Assembly (NCBI GenBank): GCA_012295275.1
Contig: CM022677.1
Location: 12,152,001 to 12,216,000 of the forward strand
Origin: Chrysomallon squamiferum
Taxonomy: Eukaryota; Animalia; Mollusca
Length of the DNA stretch: 64,000 nucleotides
Direction: 5' to 3'
The notes below the pieces were generated by a model. The model did not search any database, was not told where the DNA came from, and saw only the letters and a list, made by a program, of their open reading frames with translations. The stretch's first letter is position 1. Every line of letters starts with the position of its first letter. The position numbers and the translations under genes were made by a program. Shown here one piece after another: positions 17,436 through 47,341 of the stretch.

Positions 17436-17741
17436 GTTTGACGATATTAGCAGATGCAGCCAGTGGTGTTATCAGTCAAAGTTACACATTCCAGTGTTCT
17501 TCAACCGACACTATCACTTACCCTGTGTCATTTGTGAGGGACGGACATTCTGTGTGTTCAGTCCTGCCAAGCTGTGCTGAAGCCGGTGCTCTTCCTGGTT
17601 ACTCTTGTAAATGTGCTGGTGACACAGGAATTTCCAAATTCTTCAATATGACAATCAACAATGTCAGTCTTGTAGATGAAACTAGCTGGACATGCAACCA
17701 TGATAGAAGTATTAGCAAGCTAGTTTATTTCCAAGTTGACA
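17436..17741 (+). CDS. Gene A exon: Cys-rich V-like Ig domain
   Basis: Polypyrimidine tgcag| ... GAC A|gtaagt, 306 nt, phase 1-1. YTFQC..VSFVRDG..NMTINNVSLVDETSWTC; six Cys. No leader exon found upstream. Confidence 0.88.
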
Positions 17742-18499
17742 GTAAGTTATTTGTTTTTAATTTGATAAAGTAATAGATTTTATTTATTTTAAATTATATT
17801 CTTTGTTCCAGTTGTGTTTTTATATAATAATTATTCCATTAAAGAATTATGTGGTATGTATAACTGTAAAATTAGGAAAGAAAAAATAATTTTCTATTTT
17901 AATATCACAGTTTTATATTTTTATATATAAAATGTCAGCAGTGCTAATCATTATGGAGTTTTAATCTGATATATGAGATAGGCTATTTCTTAAGTTGGTG
18001 ATGTAGTTCCATATTGGCATATCTCTGTTTTACATTAGTGATGGTGACCATCTTGGATTTTGGGCTTAAAAATGTGTTACCTAAGATTTTTATTTACTTC
18101 TGAACCAAGCGAAGTCAAAATGATCACTCACTATCGCAATTTTGGCATCTGATTCCTATGGAACTGTGAAATTCATGCATGGTGGTCTAAATTATACAAA
18201 AAAGACAAGCGTAAATTTCTGGCCTGAAGTATGGAACTTTGCCCATTTGTTTCCTTATTCCGTAAAATATATTGTCAAGTTGAAATATGTGAAAACTTCA
18301 AGCATTTACTTACATCCTAGTTAAATGAAATGAATACAGAGTGTGTATGTTTGAGTGATAATCATATTTCTCTACACCTTTATATTTTGTGTTAAGAACC
18401 ATGTCCAGTTTGTATTAGGCATATTTGTTTTAAAATGTCATGTCAAAAATGAAGAATGATGGTAACAGCCTTTGCCTTTTCTTTCTTGTAATTTGAGTA

Positions 18500-20340
18500 A
18501 TGCTTACCTGTTGGAATAGACAGCTTAATTTTTCCTCCCATATTTTAGTTCAGTTCTTCAACTGATCTGTCAGTATAAACATGTCTGCAATGATCTTGAG
18601 AATAGGCACTGTCATCTATAGTTCTCTCTGTGTTTTCATCTGGTATATAGCCTTTTGAATATCTGGAAAGTACTCTCTTCCATGCATGAAATACAAAGTA
18701 CATGCAGACGTTTTTTTATCTTGTTGTTTATGAACTATGAATTTTTTCTTTTTTGTTTGTATCGTTCATGCCTGATGGATTTGTTGTTGTTTTGGCATTT
18801 TTTGGCTATGCTAGTGCATTTGATTACCTGTGATTCACAGCTCAGACTGCAGTCGAACATGATCCACAGAAAGTTGGCTCTTTATCTAGAGGTAATATTT
18901 CCTTCAGTTATGAAGCTGAGTTTTATTTCTTTGTTGGCCAAGCTAATGATATATGTAATTTTCATTTTATTTGAATATCCCAGCAATGTCTTTGAATTTT
19001 TCAGTTGTGTGCAGAGCTTCTCACATTTGCTGTTGTAACTCGTTCTTCTGAATATCATATAACCAGGTAGTCTGCATATATTGCTCCATAAATCCAAGTG
19101 GGGTATCCTTTAATCTATCATTATTATAAAATGTTCAAGAGAGTTGCTCCGAGAAGTCCATGTACAAATTTTTCTTTCTACATTCTTGGTCTTTTGAACA
19201 TGTACAATGTTAGCATCTTTAGATTCAATTCCTCATTCCAGTCTTTGTCAAAAGACTGCAAATGTAGGATATCTTCTTTTTTTTTTTCTCTCTCTCTCTC
19301 TCTTCTTTGAATCCACTCTTAATCTTGTCATATGGAGGGATCTGATCTTTAGTGGATCCTTTTTATCAGCTTTCCTACAGAGCGTTTTAAATTGATGGTG
19401 CTGAAGTGGTTTTAATTTATACTTTCCTATTTTGTGGATTCATATAGTGTTGATTTTCTCTCAGATTGTGCTACAGAGCTATTGACTCAGCTAGCACTGA
19501 AGATCTCTAAAAGAATGTTTTGGTATCTTTTCCCTGATACTAGAGCATTTCATTAGTGATATCCATTTGGGGTGGCAAATGTTTGCTTGGTCAAGGACTT
19601 TTCATTTAATAATTTCTGTTATATCATCATCTTCTTTTATCATAGACTTCTCTCTTTCAGTGTGATTGAATGTTTAGATAATTCATTCTTTCAAAGCTAT
19701 ATATAAGATGATTAGATGCTTTGTTGCCTGTAAGTAATTTCTGATTGTATTGAACAACAGCTGTTGCAGATACACAGGCTCAAAAACTTCTTTCCTTCTC
19801 TGTCCAGATTCAGTTTTGTCTTTCTTTTCTAGTTTCGACAAACAGTCATTCCGTGTCAAATCACCCAATGGGTTAAACCTGACCATCTCAGATTTTTAAA
19901 TGTGGTTTATTTGAAGATTGGCCCAGTAGTTCCTGGGAAATGATGGTTTAAAGGTTGATTATTTGCCCATTTTGGCCAAACAATCTAGAATTTTGGGGAC
20001 CATATCTCCCACACCACTGGTTCACTTGGTGTAAAATTTGTGGCTGTGGAATCCCAATCAACAAGTAATACCAAGTTTCATGAAAATCTGAGATTGTCAG
20101 GTTTAAAATATCTTTTCTGGGGGGTGATTTGACACGGAATGACCCAAACGCTGTTTTGGGCTTTGCAGTTATTGCCTTCAGTTGCATGTTGTTTTTGACT
20201 GTTGGTTCCAGTTCCACTATTTCTGTAGCTTCATATAAGAGACATCTAAAAACTGTAGGTCATCTGTCCAGTGAGGTGTACACTTTCTTCTGGCTCTTCT
20301 TCAGATGATTTCCTTTGCCATTTATTACCAAGAACATCTT
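18500..20340 (-). mobile_element. Highly degraded LINE (CR1/L2-like) remnant in a gene A intron
   Basis: Minus-strand scraps LPGYMIFRR (endonuclease-like) and RTIDD..QD (RT-like). The segment is absent from the homologous gene B intron. Confidence 0.4.
19845..20145. mobile_element. ~300-bp MITE
   Basis: TIR GTCATTCCGTGTCAAATCACCC / GGGTGATTTGACACGGAATGAC, plus inner inverted tctcagatttt / aaaatctgaga. Confidence 0.85.
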
Positions 20341-21935
20341 ACAAAATAAATGGTACCTATGTGATCTGTTAAACAATCATTATCACTAAGCACATAAATC
20401 ATTTCACACCATTGTTGATTTCACCAAAGATTTCTGTCAAATTTGCTTTGTTACTGGTATTATTATTATCTTTTTTTAAACAGTGGGTTTTAATATATTT
20501 GACCAATTATCATTGACACTGTGCTCTGATTTTACATAATGCACATATCAGTTTTGTGTGACAACCACATTGAAATAAGAATTACAATTGTATATGTTAC
20601 AGGAATTTAGATGGGATTTCAAAATTAAATCGGTTTTCAGACACAGGTTAGAGTAACTTAGTGATTAATACTGTTGACTCAGTTTTGATGGTAATGGCAT
20701 TTATCAACATTTGTGTCTGAACTGTTTAGTGTGTAAATATGAGGGGTGTTCACCTGGTTTTATTTCATCATAAATATACGAGTGTAAACAAGTGTTTGGT
20801 AATATTTGCAGTGCCACTTTTCATTTATTCAAATTGGAGTTACCCAATTGCATTGCAATATAGTTTACACTATCTGTAGATCCAGAATCCATATTCTAGC
20901 AATTTAGAGCAAGTTTTATCTGACAGCTATCTCATAAATATGCAAATCATATTGTTATATATTTCAAATTAATTTTGGACCTATAATGCTGTATCTTACC
21001 AATTTAAAACAGTTTAGTGTTAGGTAGATGGCATTGGAAAAAAAAGACAACTGGGAAAAGTCAGCTGAAAAAACAAAACAAAAACCAACCAACAAAAACA
21101 ATGACTGGAAATATGAAAAAAAAAGAACTGTGCCACATATTACAACCATTATAACACTTGAGACATATCTTATATAATAAAAGTTTTTACAATCTACATT
21201 TAATAGATATTGCCAGATATTTGTATTTTGTGTGTAAATCAAATATTTTTCATGGTGTAATGAAAATGAAAACCATTACAATAAAATCATATAAAATGTA
21301 TTAATAACTGATTTGTTAAAAAAATACAAGAAAGAAAACAACAAAAATTCATATTTTACACACAAAATTTATTTTAAATAAAATGACACTTGTTTAAACA
21401 AGAGGCTGATCATTGTAAATTAGGAGATTTAAAAAAAAATATATTCTGAATTTTACACTGGAAATGTCTTCAAGTGTTCATAAAAGAAATATGTTAAACT
21501 GAAGATCTAAAATTAATTCTAGAAAATGTGTATTTAATTAGTAATAAATAAACAAAAAAGAAAGCAAAAACAATAATTACATAAAAATCATGTTTAGAAG
21601 GCAACATCTGTACACTCAGAAATGTTTTAAAATTACAGAGGTAAAGGTTTCCTAGAATAATTGTATATCCCAAGTAGAACATTATAACAATATAACAATA
21701 TATATAATCTAGTACAATTTTTACTAAATTGTCTTAAACACTTCTTTTGCTGACTTTCTTATTTTCTGCAAAAATAACAAGTTGCCCATTTTTGTGACAT
21801 ATCTGCTTCATTGAAATAGGGATTCTTTATTTCATTATTATTTTTTTTATATATATATATTTTCATTTAAAATCTGATAAATTTTTTACACCATAAGGAA
21901 TAGTACAGTGAATTTTCTTTATCTTCATTTTCCAG

Positions 21936-22274
21936 CTCCAGTTAATTATACAATCACAGAAGTTTCTGGTTCAAGGCCAAACTCATTTAACATGACCGAG
22001 GGAGACTCTGCTGTTTTTACCTGTGTTGTACAGGGAGCCAAACCAGCACCAAATGAGACACAGATCTTGTGGTACGTAGACAGTAACAAGCTTCCTGTCA
22101 GCATCACTGGATCTCCCACTACTACTGACAGACTGACAACATTAAGTGTGACGTACACAGCCAGCAGAGAACATGATGGTCAGAAAGTTTTCTGTGCTGC
22201 TGAAAATAACTTGATGATTGACCAAAGTATCCCTGCTGTCAGCTCAAGTAACAAAATTGAACTACATATACAAA
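21936..22274 (+). CDS. Gene A exon: C2-like (CD80/nephrin-type) Ig domain
   Basis: tttccag| ... CAA A|gtgatc, 339 nt, phase 1-1. EGDSAVFTCVVQGAKPAP..ILWYVD..REHDGQKVFCAAEN. Confidence 0.9.
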
Positions 22275-22346
22275 GTGATCACCATTTTTTCTTTGTATTT
22301 TATTTCTTACCTTGTGTAAAATGAAGAAGTAGTTTCAAATGTAATA

Positions 22347-22415
<69 letters not shown>

Positions 22416-22976
22416 TATGGTTTTTAGTAACAAGTCTGAAAGTAACCAGCACCTAACAAATACTGTTTATTTGAAATGTATGATTTGTAACATTTTGATA
22501 TTAACGATGATTTAGATTTGTTGTACAGAATTGATTCGGTGTGTTAACTGTAAAATAGTGTGCATGTGCTTTAAGATTAATTAAATCTCACTGTAATGGA
22601 ACAAATATCAGGAATATTCTTCAGAGAATGATTTGTTGACCTATTCAGAAATTATTCAGGCAGCGAGATCTTGAAACATGACCAGATGAATAATTATGTC
22701 CCAGTCAGTAAGTTAATTTTGATACCAGAGTCTATTCTTACTGGCTTCATTGCAGAGTTTTATTTGGCTTTGAATAACATAAACAAATTAAAATATGGCA
22801 AATTAGAAACAGTTTGATCAAATTTAGTGACAGGTCTGGTATATTTTCATTTATTGACATAGAAAATGATAGATCATTTTGATAGGGACAGGAACATTTT
22901 TTATTTCAAGACTTTAATTTTTTAAATAAAACTGCAAGTGGTGGATGGACCAGTGAATTACATTTTTCCTTCTTAG

Positions 22977-23614
22977 CAGAAAAAAGAAATTCAACAAATG
23001 TTCCTACAACAACTCGAAACCTGGGATCAGGTTCTGGCTGTAATGTAGTTTGTATTATCCTCATTACAGTTATCAGTGTCACAGGTCTTTGTATAATCAT
23101 AACATGCTGTCTGATACCACTAAGAAACCAAAACACAAAGAAAAATGATAAAACTACAAATATTGAACTGAACAGTAAAATGAACACTGAAAAGTCTGAA
23201 ACAGGTTTCTGTTGATATCAAAGCAGAAGAAAAGTGTAACATTCAAGAGAACACAGACAAAACACATGACACTGAAGGTGTAGAAACTTCACAGTCTGTC
23301 AAAGATAGGATTGGTAATAATCTTCACACAATATGCCTGGTAACCATGGAAGTGATGAAGATAATGAAAGTTCTGAAGATTACTCATATAATCAGACAAA
23401 TGTAAAACCTGCAAATCAACCAGTCAGTAAAGATGTCTGTGAAGAACACACAAGATCTGAAGTTTGTCAACAGTCAGTCACTGATTCACTGAATAAAACT
23501 GAAGTGAGCAACAATACAGCAGAGAGCCAACATCCAACCAGACAGAATCACAATAATGTTGATCATCAGAAAACAAAACGTATTACTACTATTGATGTGA
23601 AAATCAAATTATAA
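22977..23614 (+). CDS. Gene A terminal exon TM1: stalk, TM and cytoplasmic tail (tail disrupted)
   Basis: tcttag|CA, phase 1: EKRNSTNVPTTTRNLGSGSGCNVVCIILITVISVTGLCIIITCCLIPLRNQ. A 2-bp deletion relative to B gives TGA at 23213-23215. After a further 1-bp deletion near 23320 the acidic ancestral tail resumes as ORF 23333-23614. Confidence 0.8.
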
Positions 23615-23917
23615 ACAAATGAAGCAGTTTCAAAGTTAATTTGTTTTTTATTCCAGACTTTTTATTTGCTTCAGCTCAGTACACTTAGCTACATTCTTCA
23701 TTATTTCAGATAATTTCTAGAAGCCAGCGATTGTATTGTGGATTCTGCTTAACTAATCAAGGAATAGCTTTATTTCTATCTTTTTTGCTAATTCTGATAT
23801 AAGCAAAATAAAAAAGCTTTTAAAAGAAGTTTATACAATGTTGACTGTTTTAGTTCCACTCTGAGTAATATGCTTATTAACATAGATAAAGTTACAGCTT
23901 AATGCTTGTCTTTCACA

Positions 23918-23952
<35 letters not shown>

Positions 23953-25488
23953 GAGATAAATGCAAGTCTGCTGCTTTATTATACTGTAAAACCTTTTATA
24001 AACACTTTTTAACAGTTTTGAATATAATGTTTGCAGTAAGAACTTCCATGACAGATTAAAATATATTAACTAAAATTGAGAAAAACCTTGAAACAAATTT
24101 ATTTTCTCTTTCATTCTTTCTTTTCTTCTTCACTAGATCATAGAGCATCACTATTACTGTTATATACCTGGTTTTTATATATGTAAAGTTTCACCAATAC
24201 ATATGTTGAGTATGTATGGTTTGAACCCAGAAATTACCAGTTGTTGGCCTGCTCTGACAGTGTGTTTTGTTGTGGAATGTCCTGTATGGATGTTTTAATG
24301 AGACAGACCAGAATGTTTACATTTGATCTGATTATATTTCTGATTTATTATCTGAAATTATAATTTATAAATTAAATATTAAGGGTACTTGTCTAGTTTT
24401 AGTAATCACTGTTTGCATCACCTTGTCCTTTGATATTATAGTAATAATAATTTTATTATTAATATTAATATTTATTGGATATTTTTCTTTTTCTTTTTTA
24501 AAATGTATTTTCTCCACTTCACTTGTTTTTACCATACTAAAGTTTAATTCATAAACATTATTTATTTTATTCATATTAATGTGTTTATATTAGAATCAAC
24601 ATGAACAGAAACAACACCATCAAGCAGTAAGTAACGTAATCACATTGTTAGCCCTAACCTTGTGCTAATCATTCATGTAACCTCAGTTCCCCTTCCACTG
24701 GTTTTAATAAAAAAAACTGAAATTTTATTTTGCAAAATCACTAATTAATTTTAATAAAAATAATTATTATAATTATAATATTTGTGTTGGTGATTAATAT
24801 AATTTGTCTGATAAAGTCCAGTTTGAAAATTTACATAATTTTTTATATTATTTTACTATTTAGCTATAAAACTGTGTTAATTATTATTATATTAATAGGT
24901 AATTGTATATGAATACATGAAGTGTATATATAGATTAGTTAAATAACTGTCACTTGGTTGGAGTCTTACATATTGTTACATCTCATCTCCTCCTTTACTC
25001 CTAAAATAAAAATAAAATATTTTTTATTACATTAAACTTATACTTTAAAATTAATAACTTCAAAATCTCCTTTTTAAATTAGCTTTATTTACAATAATAC
25101 AATTCAGTATTGCTAATCATTGGATGTGAGTAATTTTTAGCCATGCTTTCCCATCATACATGTGTTCAAGCATGCTTGTATTGGTCACTAATTGTATTTA
25201 TAATTAATGCTGTGGCATATTTAGCTGCTTGTTTCTAAGTTTCTGGCTGTTTTAAAATATTAAGATCATACAGTTTATCTTGCTGAATAAAAGTCTTTAC
25301 TCAGACCTCTGTTTAAAGTTCTATATCATGGCCAGTGTAGTTATGACTATACAAAATGTTTCCTATATACATGAAGTCCCTGTTAAATACAAAGCATGAA
25401 ACCCAGACTTTTTATTTTTTTTTTTTTTTTATTTTAAGATATTTACTCAAAATTACTTTGAAATGTCATTCTTAGATTTATGTTTTTG

Positions 25489-26568
25489 TTTGTATCTGTT
25501 AGAGGATGAGTCATTACAATATTTACATGGGTGAAACTTCATGTTAATTCATTCATTACAATAGCAGTTTAGGAAGCTGGTCATATTTGGTAACTACCAG
25601 ATTAGTATTCCTTTTTACTTATTTTTCTATTTATTGATAGTTTTCATATAGTTTAAAAATTGTGTTCATTTTTAAATGTTTTAATGTATTGTAAAATAAT
25701 TTACAACAGCAGAAACAAGACAGTCAGTCAGTAAGTGTTTGTATACATAGATACATGTGAGTAATCCTTCCTTTAACAAGCTTGTAATTATTTAAGTAAT
25801 AGATTGTATTTAGAATTGTTTTCTGTGACAATGTTTTATTCCATCTTCTGTTTCACACAAAACAGAGGCAAAACTGAAATCATGTAAGTATAAGGATCAC
25901 ATTAAATAGAATGATAATATAATTAAAAATAATCTTCAGTTCAGTTTTGAACTTTGATAATGATACTAAAACATCATCAAATAAATAGATGTAATAATTT
26001 TCTTTATTAAGTCAGCATTGACTGGTTTTGTTATATTATACATTTTACCCCATACTTTATTCCTGTTAATTTTTTTATTTTTTTTTTTTTTTTTTTTGTT
26101 AACTATTACTAACTGCAAATTGTGCCTGAGAATAATTAAGCTGGCTTGTAATGAGGGATGCAGATAACAACTGGACATCTATTTGACACGATATGGCCAT
26201 CAAAGGTCACATTTCATTATAGCAAAACAGAGGACAGAAAATGTACATAAACTAACAATACAATCAGCTAGACAAGAGCATTTTTAACTATCGTATCAGT
26301 CCAGTTATAACCACTGAAAATGATGCATCTAAAACTGTGTTACTGTCCTTGTTGTCTATTAATAACATTTGCAGTTATAACTCAGTTATAAGTTTTATAT
26401 TTGGTATTTGGAACATGATTAATGGTATTTACACAACGTTTAAGAATTTGTAGATTGGTAGTGTTACCAAATATGACCAGCTTCCTAAACTGCTATTGTA
26501 ATGAATGAATTAACATGAAGTTTCACCCATGTAAATATTGTAATGACTCATCCTCTAACAGATACAAA
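25489..26568. repeat. 106-bp inverted repeat pair (25489-25594 / 26463-26568)
   Basis: tttgtatctgttagaggatgag...catatttggtaac is the reverse complement of gttaccaaatatg...ctctaacagatacaaa; no mismatch seen by eye. Confidence 0.9.
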
Positions 26569-27325: not shown

Positions 27326-27570
27326 AACCTTGTTCTGTTCTTCTGTACAAACAAAAATGAAACTACACTTTTAATACTGAAGAGCTTTTTTGAAAAATTG
27401 ATAAATAAACTGGTTACCTTTTGTATCTAAAAGAAAATCTGGTCCTTAAAATATCAGTCTAAAACAGATGTGGGTTCGCTTAATTACAGATAAATACGTG
27501 TTTCAGTTGTTTTCAACATTTTAAATCATATTCCTGAGATAAGATTTGGAAGATAAACATTAAAACTACC

Positions 27571-28260: not shown

Positions 28261-28362
28261 CTGAAGTCTGTGTTTGTGACTGCACAGTGGTTCTTAGTGT
28301 GGTTCTGGCTGTCTGGATGGTTGTTGTAGTTGTCTACTTATTTCTGTGTCTGACCCTCCTGA
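28261..28362 (+). CDS. Candidate alternative TM exon TM2
   Basis: ttattttcag| ... CTG A|gtaagt, 102 nt, phase 1-1: EVCVCDCTVVLSVVLAVWMVVVVVYLFLCLTLL. Confidence 0.75.
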
Positions 28363-28859
28363 GTAAGTATAATTTTAAAAACATTTCATAAAGCCAAGTA
28401 ACTGGTTACAAACCAGTTTCATTATGGAAGACAGTTTTCTATTTGTTTATTTTAGGTAACATACATAATATAGGTTTGGCTGCCTTTAAGACTACTTGAA
28501 AATACAGTATCAGTTAATCAAATTTAATTTTTATTTATTTATTATTATTATTTTTCAAGTCTTTTGGGGATAAACTATTTAATGTAGAAATGAAATAACT
28601 AAACAATGATATATTAGTGGTGTACACATTTTATATCTGTTTCAGAAGATTTTAAAAAACGATGGATTGTCCTTGTGGTTTTTGGTTTCATACAAATTGT
28701 TCTTGGGCTGATTTCTGTGGGCTGTCTTAATATGGAACATACATGTAAGTAAATGCATATTGACTTACCTATACTGCAGATTAGGTTTGAATTAAATGTT
28801 AGAATGTCTGTCCTTATCAATTCGACAGTAATATTTCACAGTGAATGGTTTCTGGTTTG

Positions 28860-29321: not shown

Positions 29322-29423
29322 GCAGTTCGTGTAAAAGCGATGTTTATGTGGCAGGGGCAGTTTTCTGTGCTTTGTCTCTGCTCTGTGGAGCAGTGGTTGT
29401 CATTGTTGTACTGTTACGGAGAG
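29322..29423 (+). CDS. Candidate alternative TM exon TM3
   Basis: gatttcag| ... AGA G|gtaggt, 102 nt, phase 1-1: SSCKSDVYVAGAVFCALSLLCGAVVVIVVLLRR, with a basic stop-transfer motif. Confidence 0.8.
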
Positions 29424-30172
29424 GTAGGTGGTTTACCACTGATCCAAGCTTTAGACGTACACGTTAAATGTTCAACATAACGTTAATTGAAAAGAAACAA
29501 AATCTTATTTAAGAAATTTCTTCAGTTTGACAACAAAATCAAATACATGAATAAAAAGAATGAAATATTATAATAATGATGATGATGAAATATGAAATAT
29601 TAAATGTATTTTTTAAATACAAAATAAAATGAAAGTTAATTCTTTTGGAATATTTTTTTTATCCTGTTCAAGCTATTTTAATCTAAATGTGTGTGTTAAT
29701 CTTGAGACAAAGTTTTGAGAATGGGTGTAGATTTTTGTTTTTATTTTAAATTGAGCATCATTTTTTAATTATTGTTTTGTGACATGCATATGTCAAATAT
29801 TAATTTCATATTTATACATCTGCTTTGATAACTTTGTATTAGTGATTCACATTTCAAAAGTTCTTTTGCTACTTTGACTTAAAAATTCACATATGTATTT
29901 TAATAGTTAAGTTTTTGTTATATTTTTTAATTTTTTTAAATTATAATATATCTAGGTTAGTTGATCTGTTTGTTTTAAAAAATATGTTTACATAAAAACG
30001 AATTTAAAAAGAGGAAACAGCTGCCCTGTAAACCTAGCTTACTTAATTTAGAAATGTTTGTAAGTTAAATCAGTGAAACCTGGAAACATTTTGAAGTTTA
30101 AATTCATTTTAATTATTTTATTTAATTTAATTTATTTTAAAGTACTTTAAATATTCAGTTTACACTTTTCAG

Positions 30173-30290: not shown

Positions 30291-32899
30291 GACAGATTAA
30301 ACAGATGCTCACAAATACACATAGATAAACTTTATTTTGTCTTTCTTTTGTTTGTGATGAAAACACCACGTAGGCTGCCACCATTTGAAAAAACTATAAC
30401 AGAAACTGAAAAGCAAAAGAAAAAGAAATCGAAAAAGGAGCAGGGAAAAGAGAAAGGATTCAGAGGAAGGAAATAATGATAACGAGAGAGAAGAAAAATC
30501 TAAAGAATGAACAGAAAATCAGAAACTTTAAAATGTCAGTTACTTATGATCAGAGATTGATGATCATCAATCTTTTAAACTTATTTTCAGTTAGCAAATA
30601 CATTAATATTATAAATTTTAAATGATACTTCTCAGTTAAATCATTTTGTTAAGGCATCCAAGGCTTGTAATTTAGTTTATTGATTGGAAGCTAAATTCCT
30701 GTTAAAATGAAAAGGCAAATGTCAATGCTAAGTGAAAATTAAATTTAAAAAAATGTATTATCATCTGAAACAAAAATATCAATTAAAATGTCTTACATAT
30801 GTCATCATTTTTGTCGGTTAGTTTTGAGTAGTGGAAAACTCAGATCAGATTTGATGATACTGACGATGCAAAACAAAGCTGATTCTTGTCAGTTAACATT
30901 TTTTAGTTGTGTTTTTTCTGCTACCTGAACATTTTTATCTTTTAATGTTTTAATAATTTAACTCAGAAGTTGGTATTAAATTTTTATTTTATTTATTTTT
31001 TCTAATACTATATAAAGTAATCAAGGAAGTAAAATCTAAACTGAAAATAAAACTGACAAATACTGCTTTGTCATTATAACAACCTTAATAATAGTGATAA
31101 TAGAATAACGTTCGTTGTACAAGTCTTTAACAACGGTACTTTCATCATTTCTGATGTAAGTGACAGGTTGACAATTAGAGCGTAATGGTGTAATTGTGTG
31201 GGTGTGTATTTATATATGTAATGTATTTGTTATGTTTGTGTTTGTCATGGTGTTGCTTGTGAGTGTATGCACACGCGTGAACATATATATCTATGCATAC
31301 AAAATGTTAACAAAAGTAATTACTGAAATAAAATTATAACTAGAAATTATGTTAGGAGGTTGGTGGAAATTATATGGAAGATATAGCAACTCCCCCAGCT
31401 ATGTTACCCACCACTATTAAAGTGTGTTCCCATGAGTATAATGTCAAATGAGTATAATTGCAAACTGAAGGTTTTTTAAAGTGTTAGACAGAAAAGCTTC
31501 AAGCACTGACTGCTGCACGTTATATAGTTCAATAGTATAGTTCAAGACACTACGCCCAGCATACAGTGTTACTTACTGCTGTGTTTTGTATAGCAATTAC
31601 TTCAAATAACGCAATTCAGTATGAATAAAGACTTTTGTAGACTACTACGCCAGAAACCTTTTTGGATCCAGCACTGATTTTAAAATGTTATCATTTCGTG
31701 TTGGGTAGATTGTACATAATGTGACTGCGCCCTTTCATATTTTCACATCAAACTTCTGTTTCTCATGAACTAACTGAGAAAATGAAATATTGTATTTGGT
31801 GCTTCGTAAACCAAATATAAAATTTCCCACTGAATTGTTTAATTAATATTATGTCACGACTTTAAAAAGAAAACAACAATAATTAACAACTGAGGTTACA
31901 AGTGTAAATCACAAAATATTGTTGGATCAAAAGAAATTATCTTTACACCAAAACTAGCATGTAAGTAAACTAAGCTGAAATCAATAACATGACACCGAAT
32001 CAATTTGTTTATCAAGTTTAAATGTTCTACAGAATTATCCAAACTGCAGTTAGAATTAAAATCTGTTTTCTTTGAAGATTCAGGTTTGTATTTTTTATAA
32101 AATCAGGAGCGTATTAATGGACTTTTAATGTTTTAACCATTCTGTGGTGTATACAATAAAGATCAGATTGTTTTGATGATTTAGGTTTACTTAAGATATT
32201 TGAAATGTAAAACATACTAGGATGTATTCTAGAAGAAAAGAAATGGTTTAATTTCTTGTGGACAAATCAGCTCCCTTCTGTACCATTAGATATATTTTAC
32301 AGTGATTTAGGGTAAGGCTTTCCTTGTGAAATGCTGTCTGTTACCTGTATTAATAATTTCAGTTTGCCTTCGAATTAAAAAAAAAGTCAGAAATTAGTTG
32401 TCATAGTTCTCCTTTTCATATCCAGTGATATTCCGAAACATAATAAATGATCTCATTAGACATAATTTTACAAGTTATGGATTTTCAAGTTATGTTTGTA
32501 AATTGGTGGTATACTATTCATTCAAATAACTGAGAATATGTAAACTTCTGTATCAGTACTTCAAGTATTAAATCTAACGAAAAGAGAGATTAAGAAATAA
32601 AAAAATAGCAAAATGTGGATGGTTGATTATTAAGGACAATATTAAAAAGCTAGTGTTTTCAAAAATCTGGATATCAAAATAATGCAATATGCTTTCACAT
32701 TATATAATGTTCTTTGAAGTTTGGACATACAGCAATTATATGATATTGCATAAAATGCTAGAAACACAAACATTTTTGGTTTAGAGTAGTTTCATAATGC
32801 GTATGTAGTGTATATGAATTGTCGATGATTATTGCTATTTTATTTTGGAGAAAAAAATTTGAACTTGCAACAAAAAATATGATTGACATATTTACTGAA

Positions 32900-33096
32900 A
32901 TTTCCTTCACCACATATTGTCAGAAGCATATGGTTTAGAAATGGAACAAACATTCAACACACAGGATTTAACTTGTCGTTGACACCTACACATGAAGACA
33001 ATGGAGTCTGGTACAAATGTTCAGCTGGGAATCTCTTCACAGACAGAAGTGGACAACAAAGCCCTGAATCTAATTCTCTTCACATCAATGTATATT
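32900..33096 (+). CDS. Module C: 3' part of an Ig C2-like exon (first Cys not found)
   Basis: FPSPHIVRSIWFRNG..LSLTPTHEDNGVWYKCSAGN..SNSLHINVY, ending T|gtaagt in phase 1. Confidence 0.75.
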
Positions 33097-33495
33097 GTAA
33101 GTTGTTAACTAAATTTTGTTTTAATTCTTTTATATTTACTTATTTATTTATTTATTTATTTATAATGTTATTTGTTTGTTTGATTGTTTGTTCATTATGA
33201 CTTTCACATTAATTAAATAAGTAAGTAAATAATGTTAAAATTATTTATAAAGTTAGTTGAAGTAATATTTGATACTTCCATTGGATATGCTGATCTCATC
33301 CCTACAAATATTAAACAGAAACACGTACATACTAATTCATCTGCCTTTGATAATACTTTCTCATTATGTAATAACTGTTATTCTGGCTTCACGTTTATAG
33401 TTTTCTGTGGAATAATTCAAGTTCTGTACATTGTAAACTATGTTTTCTGTTTCCTCTTAGTTTATATTTTGTTACTTTTATTTCAATGTGTGTAG

Positions 33496-33756
33496 ATGCA
33501 CCCAGAGTGAGAATTTTATCAGAGAGTCACATCAGAGTTGAACTGGGAAAACTTGTGATACTACGCTGTACAGCTGACAGTAATCCAGACAGTGTTGTAT
33601 TTGAATGGCGAACTGGTACAAAACACCTCACTGACGGTTCTCTGTTTCAAATCTCCTCATTTCAACAGTCAGACCAAGGAGAGTACACGTGTTCAGCAAC
33701 TTCAAAAACTTCTTTTAACACTTCAATGTCAGGATCTGCCAGTGTCATTGTTACAG
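33496..33756 (+). CDS. Module C: I-set/C2 Ig exon
   Basis: tgtag| ... ACA G|gtaact, 261 nt, phase 1-1. YAPRV..VILRCTADSNP..FEW..FQISSFQQSDQGEYTCSA. Confidence 0.9.
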
Positions 33757-34035
33757 GTAACTTTATTTACACTTTTTTCATGTCACCTTTGTTAGCAAGT
33801 ACAACTGATTTTGTTATTGTTTCCATACCAGTCAGAACTAGCCAGTGTCAATTTTTATATTAGGACTTTACTAAAATGTGGGTGCAGGTCTGTCTATATA
33901 TAAATATAAACACACAAACACGCACACACACAAACACACTCATATGCATGTTATTCCCAACATAAATTTTATAATATTTAAATGAAATTAAAACAGATGA
34001 AATTAAAACAACATAAATCATTTTCCATGTTTTAG

Positions 34036-34338
34036 TTCTTGAATCAGCTCCTGAATGGTGTTACTGCACAAATGTGTTAGAAACTTCAGTAGATCTCAAG
34101 TGGAAGTACGACACAAACAAGTTCACTAGATTCACTGTTGAACAACGCTTGTCTACTGAAGACCAGTCTATCAGTCTGCAAGTGTCAGACAATAAGACAC
34201 ACGACAAGACTTTTTCTTTACACATTTCTCATCTCAAGTCCAATTCTTCCTACCACTTTCAAATTTACTCTTCTGCAAATAAAAATGACAGCCGTTACTG
34301 TTTGACTCTTTGTACCACTTTAACAACAATAAATTATA
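34036..34338 (+). CDS. Module C: fibronectin type III exon
   Basis: tttag| ... TAT A|gtaagt, 303 nt, phase 1-1. SAPE..NVLETSVDLKW..FTVE..ISHLKSNSSYHFQIYS. Confidence 0.85.
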
Positions 34339-34646
34339 GTAAGTAAAATAGCATATACAGTTTTCGATTCTTCATCTAAACTTTCAGCAAAATATTTACT
34401 TTTATTTTTTTTTATGTGTTTTTTGTTTGTTTGTTTGTTTCTTTCTTTCTTTGGTTTTGTTGGTGGTTTTTTGCAGTACTTATTTACAGGTTCTGGTGAA
34501 TCTAACATTGTCTAACTGTTTACGTTATTTAGTGAAAGATCTTTAGAAGAAAGAATTGTAATAATTATAAAAACAAATAAAGCAAACTTAAACGTTAAAG
34601 CGGATCTTTTATTTATGTGTTGAACTTGTTATTGTAATTACTGTAG

Positions 34647-34753
34647 AAGAATCTTCGTCCATGGCACAATTGGAACTGGAATTGGTCTAGTAGCAGGAAT
34701 ACTTCTGCTCTGCTTTCGTGCAACAATTATTCTACTTATCCTCAGGAGAAGAG
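34647..34753 (+). CDS. Module C: TM exon, out of frame with the FN3 exon by 1 nt
   Basis: Acceptor ctgtag|. TM frame reads GTIGTGIGLVAGILLLCFRATIILLILRRR. Phase-1 entry instead reads KESSSMAQLELELV* (TAG 34688-34690). Donor position uncertain. Confidence 0.7.
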
Positions 34754-35066
34754 GTTGCACCATCCGTAGTCAGTTAAATTTTGAACTCATTCAGTAGTTA
34801 TTATTTTGTTGTTTTGAATATTTCATATTTATTTTATTGTAGTTTTTAATTATTTATTTTAAAATTATCTTCTTTCTTACTTTTTATTTTTAATATTTTT
34901 TCTGTCTCAAACTTTATGTGTGTGTGTGTGATTGTGTTCATTTATTTATTTGTATAATTGTTTCTTTCTTTTATCATTGGCCGTTTTAAAACAAATCAGA
35001 TCCTATTATTTCAATGTAAGAGTACTTATTTAGCTTGTAAAATACAACTATAAATATATCTTACAG

Positions 35067-38376: not shown

Positions 38377-38455
38377 ATGTCAGTTTGGATCGTTTCTACA
38401 GTAATGTTATTCCAGATAATGGTGATCTTCTCCCTGACTGTGAAAAGTATTTTAG
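38377..38455 (+). CDS. Gene B leader (signal peptide) exon
   Basis: aaaATG TCA ... TTA G|gtaaag, reading MSVWIVSTVMLFQIMVIFSLTVKSILG. Phase 1, joins 44045 in frame. Confidence 0.75.
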
Positions 38456-38971
38456 GTAAAGTATTTGTTCATTTTGTAGCCTCTTCTTCAGTAATTATTT
38501 TCTCTTTTTTTTTTTTAATTTATTTTCTTCTAGATTTAGTTTAAAAAATTATTGTCAGCTAATGAGGTCGCATAATTAGACTCGATCCAGTTAAAAAAAG
38601 ACGAGTATGCTTTGGTACCGAGACTAGAAAAAATCATTTAATAATGCAACTTTATTGTGTGTTTTTTCATATCAAAATATCAGCAAATTACAAATAATTA
38701 TCACAGACATCCACCGCAAGTCTAACTTCACTTTCGTCTACAAACTAAAATAGATCTACTTGCTATTATTTAAAATTTATCTGAAATTATACAAAATACT
38801 TCTAGCATGTATATGAAAACATGTTCAAACAAGTGTTTATAGTAAACATAGTTTCGCTATGTTTGGATAATTTTCGTGGAAATTCTGATTCGTCAGTTCT
38901 AATCATTTTAAATAAATCTAAAATTAAGATTATTATCATCCTCCTCCTTCCTCTCCAGCTCCTCCTCCTCC

Positions 38972-39048
<77 letters not shown>

Positions 39049-39439
39049 TCTGTCGAAGATAAAAAGTCATTGTTTATCTATAAGACAGTTTCATTAGACA
39101 CATTTCTTTTCCGCAAACTTACTAAAGATTTTTGTTATCATACTGATTCTTACATATATGCAATCCTGAGATTATCTAGTCTCTATATATTAAATACGAA
39201 AAGATAAAATAACGACAAATATTAAATAAATATGTCTTCATAATTATAATCAGTAAATAAACTTAGCTGCCGATATATGCAAATCATTAAAGATTTCTCA
39301 CTGTCCAAAGGAAAATATGCGATGAGGAATTCTAAAGGAAATTTTTAATGTTTTAGTTACGTTAATTAGCGGCCAAGATAAGACACGTTTTGTGTGACAA
39401 ACTAACTCAGCTCTGAAATGTGTCTGCCCGAGTAGCTAC

Positions 39440-39660
39440 TTCTTTCTTTAATTCCGCGGATTTCACCGACGTCCGCAGTAATCTAATACACGGGCTTCGC
39501 GGCTGAGACGAGGCGAGTTCAAGTCTGGTTCGGGAAGCGACAAGCGGGCGGTTGACAAGTTTGATGAACTTGGAGGTCAAGGGACAGACCTTGACACTGT
39601 GGCCTTTCTTTGACACGCAGTGATAGCGTCATTAGGTAGCGTAAGTTAAGTTGTATAGGC
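39440..39660 (+). mobile_element. GC-rich island, possible tRNA-derived SINE (copy at ~57810-58040)
   Basis: CpG-rich stretch with a B-box-like GAGTTCAAGTC, followed by a (TA)(TG) tail. No convincing cloverleaf. Confidence 0.35.
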
Positions 39661-39661
39661 C

Positions 39662-39715
<54 letters not shown>

Positions 39716-39887
39716 TGTGTGTATGTGTTAAATATACATAAATAAACTGCACTCCTTCTGATGTATTATTTATCTATTATTATACATACATCGCACAATT
39801 TATAACTGACCAGTCCTTGTCACACTGTTTTATTCCCCTAGACAATTAGCACTTTAAACACTTTATTATCAGTAACTATTATTATTA

Positions 39888-39970
<83 letters not shown>

Positions 39971-40868
39971 TTCTTTATTTTTTCTTTATTTGGCATGATT
40001 ACAGTGGTAAAGTTGTTCACTGTAGTGCCTCTTTTCCTTAATGTCATAAGAATGTTTTTATTTTATTTAATGGTTAATCCAAGTCTGACTGATGAACTTT
40101 ATACAGCTTAGATTAAAATAGAACCTACACTATGGCTAGAGTGCTGTAGTAATAATGTGACACAGCAAGTTAACCTAGATAAAGTACAACTCGTGTACCG
40201 GGAAGAAACATGTTTAGTCACAACATTCACAATGGCGCTGTTGAGATATTTACTTGTTTCTCTTACGATTATCAGCACAGATAGGTTTTTTTAAAGTTTT
40301 ACACTAGAAAAGTCGCCTGACATTTATGTAACACTAGCCTGTACGCTGAGACTCAACCTGTGTTATTTATTTCAAATAATTAGTGTTTGGTTCTTCATTG
40401 TAAAATAATTTTTGTGATATTAGAGAGACATATTCAAGTTTTCCGAATGTTTCATACTTTGGATAAAAACTTGTATGTTTTTTGTTAGTGTTATTTGTCA
40501 CGGACCGTTCTCTGTACGCCTACAGAACAGAGAAATAATAATCACTATTTCCTATTCTACGACTGTCAGTATTTAGTATTAATTTATAAAGTAATCTGAG
40601 GTGAGTATGTTCCAACAAGATAAATTAAGATTACTGCCTCCTGCTCGGAGCTTTGTTAAAACTGGTAACTCTATTGTCATGTAATATGACCATATATGGC
40701 AACTGCTACCTGGAGTTTATAGGAAACATTCTCAGAATATAGAGGTTATTCTCTGCCCTTTATAGTACAAGACTTTAGTTAACTGTTAATGAAGATGGTG
40801 ACACTTTTTGTGAGGTTTTTGTTTTGGTTTGTTATGATATTTCAATTTCGTATTGATTAAATATAATA

Positions 40869-41525
40869 CAGTGGTACCTTGACTTACGAGTTTAATTGGT
40901 TCCGTGACCGAGCTCGTATCTCAGTTTGCTCGTATATCCAATCAATTTTCCCAACTGAAATTAATTGAAATACCATTAATCCGTTCCAGACCTTCCAAAA
41001 CCACCCCTATGTTTTGTAACGTGTTTTTAAATAAGAAAAATGTATTTATAAATGACAAATTTTGTTTCAAACCAAAATAAAAGAGAGTGTAAACTGGATT
41101 TAACTTAGAGATCAGACAAATTATTTTAACGCCTTTGGCTGGAGTTACAACCTTTATCGACTCTTTTAGCTTCAGCATGGTGCATATCGTAGAAGTACTA
41201 CGCTCGTGCTGCCTAGCCAAGTCGACTACATGCACACCTCGCTCATGTCTCGCTTCTTCTTCTCAGCACCGTCCTTTTCATTCACTTTCTTAATAGCCAT
41301 GTTCAGAAAAAGAAATTTGGTATAATACTGCACAACACGCGAGCAGAACACAACAAAGATGCTTCCGCGCCGAGGTAACCATGTGAAGTGAGACGCTGGA
41401 TGCTGGCCGGATATTGTGTTGTTCGCTGCGCCTACTAGCGACGGCGTCTCTGAAACTCGCTCGTAACTCGGATTTTGGCTCGCAACTCAAAGCATCGAAT
41501 CGACCGGACGACTGCTCGTAAGTTA
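40869..41525 (-). mobile_element. Internally deleted Tigger/pogo element
   Basis: TA|CAGTGGTACCTTGACTTACGAG end, partial inverted ctcgtaagt at ~41515, and a psq-HTH fragment VVDLARQHERSTSTICTMLKLKESIK. Confidence 0.85.
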
Positions 41526-44044
41526 CTTCAGTATTTATGAAATTTAGTAAATACAATATTCTTTTCTCTCTCTCTACATTAATCTTTCCATAGTCAGTGG
41601 TTTCATACTGAAAAATGAACTAGATCTGATTTATAAGTGGTTAAGAAGCAATGACCAGAAAATAGGTTGACCGAATACACAACGCCTAAATCCTAAATAC
41701 GGAAGTCGTTATTTGATATCGATATTCTAAAGAATGAAGTTGTATTATTAATTATTCATTATCATTACAAATAAATCAAATGTTTAAAAAACATTTACGA
41801 TAATATCGGCTCGAAATACAGTTTCAACGGATCTGATGTAAATATGTCTGTCCATCCATAGTCTATCTGTATGTCTGTCTCTCTGTATTTATACCAGTTT
41901 CTTTGTTAATTTTTATATGTTAATATGTGAAGTGCATTAATTGTGAGATCTTCGGTACTGACAGATACGCGCAGTGTACACATCCGGCCTGACTCAGTAT
42001 CGTCGCAGGCTCAGTCTAAGAGTGAACAAACAAACTACACCCGCCTGACACCATTACATAGCATCACAAGTACCACAGACTGACCAGTTTAACAAACGTA
42101 TACACTTTTTATTGAAACTTCTGTCTTCTGGAACGTACTTGTAATGTGCTCGCTTTGGATATAAGATAATGTACAAGCAGAACATAATATATTCTTTTAT
42201 CAGGGATTATCTTAATTAAATATCTGCCTAAATTAGAAATGCTACAGCAAGAGAGAATAAAATGGCACAAAGAGCAGGACCTAAGATCATCAGTCAGCAA
42301 ATATGTGTGGTCACTACTTCGAAATGTCTGTCAGTGTGCCTTGTGATTAATGATTGAATTCATTTGAACAATGCACTTTCCAACGCTGATACCTGTAGAA
42401 TGATAACTCCTAATTAAATCATTATCAATCATGCTAACATTGCATAAAATGTTTGGTATTTGGCAAAAACTGTGTTACTGATGCAGTTGAAAAAAGGATG
42501 CTCTCAGCTTGTATCAACACAAAATTACTACAAAGCCTTAAGATTGGTCTATTTGGAGGGTGTCAGGTGTGTGTTTACTTAAGGTTTGTTTTCTGAACTT
42601 TTTAAAAGAGTATCTATGACAACAAATATTCAGGTCGCCATTAGCAGGTAAGATTACAATTTAGGTAGGACAGACATTAAGAATTAAAAAACAATAATCA
42701 GTAATAAATAAACAGCAACCATGTTACCATCAGTCAAAGTCCTTCAGTAGCAAACCCATCAAATACTTCTGTGAAAAAAAAAAAAAAAAATTAAGTTGCC
42801 ATGGTGCCTCTACTTTAAGGGAAATGTTTGCATTGATGCAATTACAACATTCGTCTTTAAAAAAAATTAAAATTCTCCCCTGTGTGTATGTAATTTTTTT
42901 CAATGCAGGCCTTATTACAAATGAAATGTCCACTATTTCACAGTTATATTATAAGAACTGAGGTGTCTTCCACCTGCAGAAAAGACTTCACTACTATATA
43001 ATAACATTTGGCATGTGTGTGGCAGTTTTAAGGATCCAAAAGTGGGTCTTGTTGGCATTAAAATGTAAATCAGTTACACTAGGACATTTCTTTGATCATT
43101 TAATATTAGTAGAAAGATGCTGAGGTATCTCCTCACCTTTTAATTTTGTAAAATATAAATACTACGGTTTACTCAACCAAACAAAATCCCAACCTTTCAG
43201 TTTCATTTGTATATCCAATATAAATGTATTTGCATACCAAAAGCATTAGAAAACCTTGATGAACTATTTCAGTAAAGTTTCTTAAATATTTCTGTGCAAC
43301 AGAATGTTTTCACAGGAAAGAGCACTCAACAAGTCATTTTTATTATTATAAAGTCATCAGAGGAACTAAGACTGTTCCTCGATGCTGAGGAAAAATGCGG
43401 CTGCTTTTTTTTTTTTTAAAGTTTTATCCCCTGAATATTTAAGATTTTCTAATTTATCCCTTTCATCATTTAGATCTTTTCACTAATTAATTTGGTAAAA
43501 CAACTTTTCATAGTACAAAGAGAAGGGAAGTTTTGAGTTCTCAAAGATTTAAATTTTAATCATGTGAATGGTCTAGCAGCAATGGATATTTACCAACTTG
43601 GGTTCACTTAACAATGTAAGTGTACTTTGCAGATATATGGAACAAAATTGAGATTTGTTTGAAATGGTAACAGCATGCAAATCGCAAATTAAGTATTAAT
43701 ATCATGGAATTATTCTACTGAAAACCTAGAAATTGTGATCACTGAAATCAGGATAAAAAGATCTACAGTTATAGTTAGGTTGTATTTCCAAAACAGAAAG
43801 TCACTTTGGAATTATCTACTACCGGTGCTTACACTACAAAATTAAATTTGGAATCCAGTGAATGTTAGAAAATGGAATCCATTTCTTTTATTTTAAATAA
43901 AATTGACATGTGACCTATGGAAATGGCAATACTCCCTTAGAAATAACTGTATTAGCACATTTTTTTTCTAATATTGAAATAATTTAGCAAAATGTAGAAA
44001 AATAACAACCAACTGAAAAAATTGTATTGTGTATATTTTTGCAG

Positions 44045-44350
44045 GTTTGATGACCTTAACAGGTGTTGCCAGTGGTGTGTTGAGTCAGATCTACACATTC
44101 CAGTGTTCTGTATCAGGCAGCATCACTTCACCTGTCAGCTTTCTAAGAAATGGAAATACTGTGTGTTTACTCCTGTCACACTGTGGTGAAGTCAGTGTTC
44201 TGCCTGGTTACCCTTGTACATGTGCTGGTCAGACTGGAACTTCTAAACTCCTCAATCTGACAATAAACAGTGTCAGTCTTGAAGATGAAGCTACCTGGAC
44301 ATGTACCTATGATACAAGTGCTAGCAACAGATTTGATTTACCAGTTTTGA
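44045..44350 (+). CDS. Gene B exon: Cys-rich V-like Ig domain
   Basis: tttgcag| ... TTG A|gtaagt, 306 nt, phase 1-1; same six Cys as gene A. Confidence 0.9.
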
Positions 44351-44951
44351 GTAAGTTATTTGTTTTTAATATGATAAAATAATACATTTTATTTATTTTA
44401 AATGTTATTCTTTGTTCTAGCTACCATTTATTGTGGGGTTCTTTTATTCCATTAAAGAATTATGTTTTATGTTACAGCAAGTTGGATATAAAATGAAAAT
44501 ATGTGAAACTGTAAAGTCAGCAAAGACAACATATTTTTTTTTAATTTTAATTTTTTATACAGCCTTTACAAAGAAGGAAAGAAAAAAAACTTACATCAAG
44601 GTATTAATTTATTATATATATATATATATAAATGTCAACAATGTTAATCATTATGTAACTTGAATTGATATATATATATATATAAATGATATATACAAGA
44701 TAGAGGCTAACATCACTGAAGTTGGTGAAGTAGTTCCAAAGATAGGCCATTTTCAAAAATGTATGGCATCTGATTACTATAGGATTTCATATTTGGTGAT
44801 CTACAACATAACAAAAAATAAAACAACAAAATATTTCTGTTCTAAGAATGGAACTTTAACCATTAGTTTACTTATTCTGTAAAATACATGAGTTGAAATA
44901 TGCAAAAAATCCAAGCACTTATTTACATCCTAATTAAATAAAATGAATACA

Positions 44952-45046
<95 letters not shown>

Positions 45047-47002
45047 GTTAATCATATTTGTCCACCTCTGTATATTTTGTGTTATGAACCATATCCAGTT
45101 TCTATTACACACATTTGTTTTAAAATGTCATGTTAAAAAAAGAATGATAGTTGTTAAATGTAACATATGGTGCTGGTGTTTGTGTCTCTTCATTCTGTAC
45201 CATGTTTAATGATGGTAACACTCACATTAATGTTTTCAGCAGATGTGCCATTTGATGAAACCACACCTACTGATAAAATTTAATGTTACTGTTATTTTCA
45301 AAATTTTACCTTCCTGTCAGTTATGTGGCCTAGCTCCTTCAATTTTACAATACTTTTTTTTTCTTTCAAATCTTTAATAACCCCTAGATCTTTTGGTTCA
45401 CTTATATTACAGCCTTTACAAAGAAGGAAAGAAAAAAAACCTCGTCTTTGTTGAAAGTTCACAGAAGAATCCTCAGTAGCTTGAATAAATGATGATATGT
45501 ATCCTATAAGTTATCCTTCAGTCTCTTTCACAAGTTTTCCTGAAGTGTGTAAATATGGGGGTATTCAGCTGATTTTATGGCATCATAAATATATACTAAT
45601 TCATGTCATTCCCCTAAAGTATAAAAAGTGTTTAATAATATATGTAGAGCCATTTTTCATTTATTCAAATTTGGAATTACCCAATTGCATTGCAATATAT
45701 TTTGCACTATCTGTAGACCAAGAATCTATATTCTAGCAATTTAGAGCAAGTTGTAACTGGCAGCTATGTAATAAATATGCAAATCACATTGTTATATATT
45801 TCAAACTGTTTTTGGCCTATAATACAGTTTAATGTTAGGTAGATGGCACTGAAAAAAAAGACAACCAGGAAAAGTTAGCTGAAAAAACAAATAATAAAAA
45901 AATAAAGCAACAAAGAAAAAGAATGACTGTGGAAATAAGGAAAAAAAGAACTGTGCCACATATATATATTATATGGGACATTATACACTTGAGACATATC
46001 TTATAGTAATAAAAGTTTTTAGTATCTGCTTTTAATAGATATTGCCAGGTATGATAATATTTGTATTTTGTGTGTAATACAAATATTTTTCATGGTGTAA
46101 TGAAAATGAAAAACAATACAATAAAATCATGTAAAATGTATTTAATAACTGATTTGTTAAAAAAAAAAATACAAAGAAAACAACAAAAAATTCATATTTT
46201 ACACACACAAAATTTACTTTAAATAAAATGGCACTTGTTTAAACAAGAGGCTGATCATTGTAAATTAGGAGATTTAAAAAAATATATATGTTCTGAATTT
46301 TACACTGGAAATGTCTTCAAGTGTTCATAAAAGAAATATGTTAAACTGAAGATCTAGAAAATGTGTATTCAAATTTAAATTATAATAAATAAACAAAAAA
46401 AGCAAAAACAATAATTACATAAAAATCATATCATGTATAGAAGGCAGCATCTGTACACTCAGAAATGTTTTAAATTTACAGAGGTAAAGGTTTCCTAGAA
46501 TAATTTTATATCCAAAGAAAAACATTATAACAATATATATAATCTAGTACAATTTTTACTAAATTGTCTTAAACACTTCTTAATGCCAACTTTCTTACTT
46601 TCTACAAAAGTAAAAATTTGCTTTTTTGTGACATATCAGCTTCATTGAAACAGGGATTTTTTTTATTTCATTATTATTTTTATATACATATTTTTTAATT
46701 CATCAATTGTTTAATTTTTATATATATATTTTTGATCTGATTGAAGACAAACCTATTTGAAATTATTAAAATGTGCAGTCATAAGCTGATAATAATATAG
46801 TTTTGCCATTGTAGCAGATACATTCAGCATTTTTACCAATTAATTAAAATAACTGTTTTAAGATCATTTAATAAGAAATATATCTTGTTTTCTGTTTATT
46901 AATATTTGCTATTTGAAACAAACTTAATAATTATCTGTGCTTTATGGTTTGATTACATCATAAGGAATAGGACAGTGAATTTTCTTTATCTTCATTTTCC
47001 AG

Positions 47003-47341
47003 CTCCAGTTAATTATACAATCACAGAAGTTTCTGGATCAAGGCCAAACTCATTTAACATCACCGAGGGAGACTCTGCTGTTTTTACCTGTGTTGTACAG
47101 GGAGCCAAACCAGCACCGACTGTTTCACAGATCTTGTGGTACGTAGACAGTAACAAGCTTCCTGTCAGCATCACTGGATCTCCAACTACTACTGACACAC
47201 TGACAACATCAAATGTGACATACACAGCCAGCAGAGAACATGATGGTCAGAAAGTTTTCTGTGCTGCTGAAAATAAGTTGATGATTGACCAAAGTATCCC
47301 TGCTGTCAGCTCAAGTAACAAAATTGAACTACATATACAAA
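47003..47341 (+). CDS. Gene B exon: C2-like Ig domain
   Basis: tttccag| ... CAA A|gtgatc, 339 nt; 8 aa differences from gene A. Confidence 0.9.

Follow-up and report, generated by a model that had tools for sequence, protein, structure and literature searches.

Hydractinia Alr2, an invertebrate transmembrane protein, is most variable in its N-terminal V-set-like domain, and the exons that each encode one of its domains move between alleles and neighbouring pseudogenes through conversion or unequal crossover; the selected sites lie on the C–C' side, the ectodomain consists of three Ig-like domains plus an ECS, the variation is allelic polymorphism and homophilic binding has been demonstrated (PMC8282982). 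The CEACAM1 paralogs, with bovine CEACAM32 among them, combine a V-like N domain, a constant-like domain and a transmembrane (TM) segment, and their ligand-binding exon escapes concerted evolution by gene conversion; the introns around the N exon of CEACAM32 are homogenised and the exon is not, a direct pointer to selection (PMC7042247). Among gastropods, the variable immunoglobulin superfamily (IgSF) domains of the VIgLs (FREP, CREP and GREP) are paired with a lectin domain, diversify by conversion and point mutation, and are poorly detected by automated scans (PMC9334734 and PMC7588048). Here we analyse two related genes, A and B, on a 64,000-nucleotide stretch of the mollusc Chrysomallon squamiferum (contig CM022677.1, positions 12,152,001 to 12,216,000; below, the window), each with a V-like immunoglobulin (Ig) exon, a C2-set exon and a TM exon. 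The reading that we favour, probable though well short of secure, is that A and B are tandem, likely gastropod IgSF receptor genes in which an old V exon is joined to a recently shared C2–membrane half, with V probably under diversifying selection and the products recognising a variable ligand. The contrast between the two halves is real; recombination is established as its source, selection on V is suggestive and the receptor function is putative.

Like Alr2, A and B have a variable V-like tip, single-domain exons and recombination between copies. Unlike Alr2, they vary between paralogs and consist of only V, one C2 domain and TM, and the likeness is an analogy. The comparison with the vertebrate CEACAM family is also an analogy, the label "CEACAM5-like" on one of our hits (P0004) being a mere database name; in contrast to CEACAM32, the V-flanking introns of A and B come close to the exon itself in age, which is the weaker signature of selection, and one breakpoint therefore explains most of the pattern. 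The VIgLs differ in that the exon after C2 in A and B encodes a stalk plus membrane helix and no lectin domain, and none of the fibrinogen, C-type lectin and galectin families matched any of the eight window peptides scanned. The variable molluscan Ig proteins in the literature that we searched, with limited journal coverage and supplements excluded, are the lectin-linked VIgLs, and we found no description there of a gastropod family like A and B.

Silent and non-coding sites form a mosaic of two ages

An earlier annotation of this stretch (the original prediction) had set a fast-changing V domain against a conserved C2 domain and had ascribed the contrast to diversifying selection, to recombination, or to both. 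Its counts agree with ours: the V exons of A and B are free of indels and share 56 of 102 residues if the split first codon is included (55 of 101 whole codons; 229/303 nucleotides), and the C2 exons differ at 8 of 112 residues, 104 being the same (323/336 nucleotides). The amino acid contrast is strong (Fisher P = 5.7e-11), but the step extends to sites that do not alter the protein. Silent divergence (dS), estimated by counting, was 0.31 in V (95% confidence interval 0.17–0.48) and 0.059 in C2 (0.013–0.119), a fivefold difference, and replacement divergence (dN) by the same approach was 0.29 and 0.034. In non-coding sequence, A and B differ at 138 of 794 sites on the V side (17%) versus 109 of 1660 on the C2–TM side (6.6%), and the change point falls inside the V–C2 intron, between positions 18470 and 20820 of A (log-likelihood gain 32, compared with a maximum of 6.2 in 100 permutations). 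A second change point on the stalk side gave a gain of 3.7, which was not significant, so one breakpoint is enough and repeated conversion is not needed. Under codon models fitted by maximum likelihood (ML), the hypothesis that V and C2 share one divergence time was rejected (P = 4e-4 and 9e-4), whereas a common dN/dS was not (P = 0.57 and 0.50). With one time rejected, one dN/dS not rejected and a matching step in the introns, the V/C2 contrast is mainly a mosaic of two ages.

The recombination half of the original interpretation is thereby borne out, as silent and intron divergence drop about 3- to 5-fold within intron 2 and a shared divergence time is rejected. The introns around C2 are as similar as it had claimed, with 2 mismatches in the last 50 nucleotides of intron 2 and 42 in the 683 of intron 3, and the change-point analysis along A and B, akin to the identity comparison that it proposed, located the step in intron 2. 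V-side intron divergence between A and B equals the 16–17% distance between A and copy D, a further paralog in the window, and within the TM region A and B are united to the exclusion of D by 43 sites, as opposed to 18 with other groupings. Aligned with gaps, AT-rich introns probably look less diverged than they are, an effect that would only favour the two-age reading. By self-BLAST, positions 18470–20728 of A are without a counterpart in B, and upstream of the V exons no homology between A and B was found beyond about 170 nucleotides. A and B are most likely mosaics created by unequal crossover or conversion, the swapping in of a V exon and the overwriting of a stalk being indistinguishable. 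Recombination can account for most of a striking pattern of variable tip and conserved base, and selection should therefore not be deduced from the amino acid contrast by itself.

The same data bear on two other accounts. One recent duplication followed by strong positive selection acting on V, with C2 under purifying selection and no recombination, draws on the forced single-time fit, in which dN/dS is 1.8 in V and 0.19 in C2, but that model is rejected (P < 0.001), fourfold sites differ at 5 of 24 in V versus 4 of 50 in C2, and introns, not expected to respond to protein selection, show the same step; we consider it highly improbable. Less far-fetched, though still improbable, is an assembly artefact in which a multi-copy array was misjoined, placing the V half of one paralog before the C2–TM half of another, or in which the frameshifts described below are errors. 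We compared contigs of four public runs (two DNA, two RNA) with the C2-to-tail region of A only: this region is covered by many near-identical contigs, and at several places none of the four runs contains the letters specific to A. An artefact would also fit the near-copy of B that starts directly past an N gap and the frameshifts of A and D, which are short deletions. The stalks of A and B, however, differ at 6.6% of non-coding sites and by many indels, which excludes a single collapsed sequence; past the breakpoint, divergence is intermediate (~10%) before it falls to ~6%, and even a chimeric join would require paralogs with similar stalks and different tips.

Predicted fold and molluscan relatives of the distal domain

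The distal domain is predicted to fold like an Ig V domain while representing a divergent mollusc subtype. The AlphaFold model of the A exon, built from a nine-sequence alignment, has a confidence score (pLDDT) of 91 and strands A, B, C, C', C'', D, E and F, and it matches V domains of antibodies and T-cell receptors (TCRs), the best match being a TCR V domain (Z 14.8, root-mean-square deviation 1.6 over 96 residues). In the model, C20 and C86 lie on strands 16–22 and 83–88 and the extra strands span residues 37–42 and 48–51, giving the B- and F-strand cysteines and the C' and C'' strands of a V-set domain; four of the six cysteines are additional. Canonical V-set sequences are marked by a C-strand Trp and a D-x-x-x-Y-x-C motif. 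A and B instead have Phe32 on the C strand and Trp replacing Tyr in the F-strand motif, and neither reached the Pfam V-set gathering score, B scoring 17.7 bits against a cut-off of 26 and A matching no family. The proximal domains of both copies exceed the Pfam C2-set_2 cut-off of 21, as a CD80-like C2-set domain should.

A search of 1.84 billion representative sequences with the V domain gave eight hits, five of them named: four gastropod proteins (Patella, Haliotis, Gigantopelta and Lottia) and one fish protein. The fish protein failed the V profile; in all, two of the eight hits (P0002 and P0006) did so and were dropped. A profile search found 21 proteins, 17 from Lottia, three from Patella and one from Gigantopelta, and the leading ESM Atlas clusters were unnamed and mostly molluscan, with V-set next. 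Homologues of single exons were sought among longer proteins, with 0 of 111 and 0 of 347 candidates retained, and metagenome scans for C2 and V yielded no locus, none of the 214 and none of the 593 pattern matches being confirmed.

Related but uncharacterised receptors of Lottia, Patella and Haliotis (P0004, P0008, P0013–P0032) are multi-Ig TM proteins with an N-terminal V-like domain that is homologous to that of A and B, extra cysteines included, and that is present in many paralogs in Lottia. They differ from A and B in that the limpet and abalone V domains are only 25–34% identical to theirs and the downstream domains vary in number and show no clear homology to C2. Several of these receptors end in tyrosine motifs, of which the distal frame of the A tail showed none. 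The Patella entries P0003, P0011 and P0012 show two copies of the V-like domain at the N-terminus of a protein that bears the name adhesion GPCR, and the domain would thus be mobile between receptor types.

Constraint and change within the V exon

Diversifying selection on V is likely but only suggested by the data. Exon-wide dN/dS was 0.88–1.0 by ML and 0.94–1.24 by counting and never significantly above 1. The per-exon comparison called for by the original prediction thus left V neither well below 1, nor significantly above it, nor distinct from C2 (P = 0.50–0.57). It had reasoned that a ratio well below 1 beside equally diverged introns would leave recombination as the sole explanation, and the data fall between the outcomes, the V-flanking introns being nearly as diverged as the exon (17% versus 24%) and dN/dS about 1. 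The exon is slightly more diverged than the introns predict (74 versus 62 differences, composition-corrected P = 0.087). Nevertheless, constraint and rate are uneven within it. The exon is free of indels and stops, whereas its flanks carry 26 gaps in 706 columns, and in 20,000 runs of neutral simulation all seven Cys and Trp residues were retained without a stop in a fraction of only 1.5e-4. The Cys/Trp core is constrained, and with a mean dN/dS near 1 this demands faster sites elsewhere in V.

As an independent guide to variable positions, we drew on 16 V domains supplied by 15 of the 18 Lottia proteins, leaving out P0021, P0023, P0032 and two partial domains; nine of the V domains had an adjacent second domain for comparison. 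Variation in the Lottia V domains is focused in one 28-column segment holding 17 of 23 variable columns (0 of 10,000 permutations), high-entropy columns are more frequent in V (15/103) than in the next domain (2/85; P = 0.004), and mean identity is 80% versus 88% (36 non-independent pairs). A and B differ at 15 of the 21 Lottia-hypervariable positions and at 29 of the 76 others (P = 0.012; rank test P = 0.014). At these 21 positions dN/dS is 1.9–2.0, in comparison with 0.72–0.75 elsewhere in V (P = 0.004–0.006), and the proportion of replacement differences (pN) is 0.41, where introns predict 0.20 (P = 0.0025). Unequal dN/dS within V is evident from this partition, and the selection half of the original interpretation is retained as a suggestion: V contains a faster site class, in which no ratio is significantly above 1.

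Several observations weigh against the reading that we favour. The original prediction had placed the A/B differences in three clusters at positions equivalent to antigen-binding loops. The segments exist, fall at BC, C'–C'' and FG of the predicted fold and differ at 23 of 30 positions, but a blind scan and runs tests found no clustering (P = 0.44–0.87), and when the sites were mapped on the model, the loops defined by DSSP were not significantly enriched (13/21 differing versus 33/80 elsewhere, P = 0.14). A dN/dS of 4.4 for the three segments was rejected as circular, the segments having been picked after the differences were seen. At the 21 Lottia-guided positions, dN/dS exceeds 1 only at P = 0.08–0.13, and comparison with the synonymous proportion (pS) of the exon gives P = 0.10; the A/B enrichment varies with the entropy cut-off (P = 0.012–0.22 across five cut-offs) and could reflect shared structural tolerance, and the second domain in Lottia is not clearly homologous to the C2 of A and B. 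The label "hypervariable" for V in the window rests on two diverged sequences, as the V exon of copy C, the third, differs from that of B by 1 base in 306, fewer than expected from the 71 in 2897 of the near flanks (P = 0.013). As assembled, the TM exons of both copies are frameshifted, B before the helix and A within the tail, which could be assembly error; upstream of A no convincing signal-peptide exon was found, and upstream of B there were weak candidates only. Several A-specific C2 letters are missing from the contigs of all four runs, and the RNA contigs list no direct C2-to-TM joint.

An account by recombination only, in which the mosaic is as described and the V surface is weakly constrained or one copy partly decayed, with no diversifying selection, draws on many of these points, and we regard it as unlikely, though it has to be taken seriously. 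It accommodates the exon-wide dN/dS that is indistinguishable from 1 and the negative blind tests; neutral change reproduces the V identity (mean 52.5 identical residues versus 55 seen, P = 0.26), and the frameshifts in A and B together with the orphan exon D fit birth-and-death decay. It is harder to reconcile with a constrained core that requires faster sites elsewhere, with the twofold excess of pN at independently chosen positions, and with a V exon that lacks indels and stops between gapped flanks.

Under our preferred reading, recombination joined to probable selection on V, the receptor gene of which A and B are tandem copies encodes the predicted V domain, a C2 domain, a membrane helix and a tail. 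Unequal crossover or conversion in the long V–C2 intron of a tandem array would join an old V tip to a shared stalk, and one stalk could carry various V tips through exons that each encode a single domain in phase 1-1. The C–C'–C'' segment of V and its neighbouring loops may form a putative binding surface, weakly constrained and probably under diversifying selection. One surface of V changes fast, as the contrast of the two site classes shows, probably because it binds a variable ligand; the products may recognise such an extracellular ligand, whether microbial or related to self and non-self. Some products, as seen in the assembly and if these changes are not errors, decay or lose their membrane anchor. 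The data indicate that gastropods have a family of membrane receptors with V domains, one that has expanded in limpets and that varies mainly on a surface common to two lineages, and a membrane-bound variable family, if true, would be a candidate for pathogen, symbiont or self recognition. More speculatively, and rather doubtfully, A and B may belong to an undescribed expanded receptor family with a TCR-like V domain, a diversifying C–C'–C'' surface, germline exon swapping and both membrane-bound and soluble (B-type) forms, a counterpart of Hydractinia allorecognition or of vertebrate variable innate receptors.

Gene copies, reads and other features of the window

The window is AT-rich (~30% GC) and intron-rich, with a single N gap at 57594–57793, and holds four related pieces, copies A–D (Table 1). 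Copies C and D and the TM-exon frameshifts are additions to the original prediction. The Ig exons of A and B each encode one domain in phase 1-1. With the first acceptor, the 79 residues of A include the TM helix, and B continues for 22 residues after C2 without one, which would make its product a soluble V–C2 protein; use of an acceptor that ends at 48069 or 48081 would leave the TM helix of B in frame.

Table 1. Positions of the receptor gene copies and of the mosaic breakpoint within the window
Feature	Position	Strand	Details
Paralog A V-like Ig exon	17436..17741	+	306 nt, phase 1-1, 101 whole codons, 6 Cys; splice sites, translation, predicted fold
A intron 2, V-side part	17742..18470	+	105 mismatches in 602 aligned columns versus B (17%)
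Mosaic breakpoint interval	18470..20820		Non-coding change point; self-BLAST
Paralog A C2-set exon	21936..22274	+	Pfam C2-set_2, 30.2 bits (cut-off 21)
Paralog A stalk/TM/tail exon	22977..23614	+	Frame stops 79 residues past C2; remaining tail in shifted frames
Paralog B V-like Ig exon	44045..44350	+	306 nt; Pfam Ig families under cut-offs
Paralog B C2-set exon	47003..47341	+	Pfam C2-set_2, 34.2 bits (cut-off 21)
Paralog B TM exon	48060..48356	+	First acceptor gives frameshift before TM helix; homology to A up to 48348
Copy C V exon	62520..62825	+	1/306 nt different from B
Copy D, orphan TM/tail exon	10823..11426 (ends approximate)	-	tblastn; 16-17% diverged from A

The V exon of copy C sits in a 6.2-kb copy of the B 5' region that begins just past the N gap and is either a recent duplicate or a second haplotype. 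Between 39424–45596 and 57805–64000, the divergence of B and C is 1.0% in the far upstream part (28/2833) and 2.0–2.8% beside the V exon (71/2897), and the single base difference within the exon is a Val/Ala change beside the BC loop. No V or C2 exon accompanying copy D was found within the window. Copy D is included in older inverted duplications (~70–83% identity) of 3567–11467 with 22936–26311 and 53477–56600.

In all four runs, contigs carry two additional bases at 23202 and one at 23318, from which it follows that other copies retain a longer tail frame. From the two DNA runs, 284 and 339 variant contigs fit the C2–tail region of A at at least 85%, which hints at a larger family, although contig numbers are not a copy number and summed contig depths were taken neither as copy number nor as expression rank. 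Within the C2 exon, 5 of the 13 A/B differences fall inside the 8 bases at 22051–22058, resembling a micro-conversion tract, and there the contigs of each of the four runs carry the form of B.

In the two RNA runs, contig depth was higher over the C2 exon than over the following intron; DNA can be present in RNA libraries, and the contigs are not evidence for transcription of A or B themselves. At the loose ends of the contigs, other C2 variants are preceded by three letters that match V exon ends and not intron, C2 is followed by further exons, and a TM exon is preceded by the end of an Ig-like exon; two exon pieces from these ends were searched for in the window, with no match. The RNA contigs, which join C2 and TM exons to exons outside the window, suggest a larger family with rearranged exon sets, and the loose ends hint at longer members with extra Ig exons.

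Between A and B, on the forward strand, lies a separate receptor-like gene with Ig, Ig and fibronectin type III exons (32883–34770; probable TM exon at ~34650–34770 by eye) that has no tblastn homology to either. Also on the forward strand, successive short phase 1-1 exons at 28261–28362, 28646–28744 and ~29323–29425 each encode a hydrophobic, TM-like stretch (the third by eye), as part of a multi-pass protein or as alternative TM exons. On the minus strand, broken frames at 141–863, 13231–14038, 40945–41619 and 59278–59976 are presumably remnants of hAT-like and pogo/Tigger-like DNA transposases.

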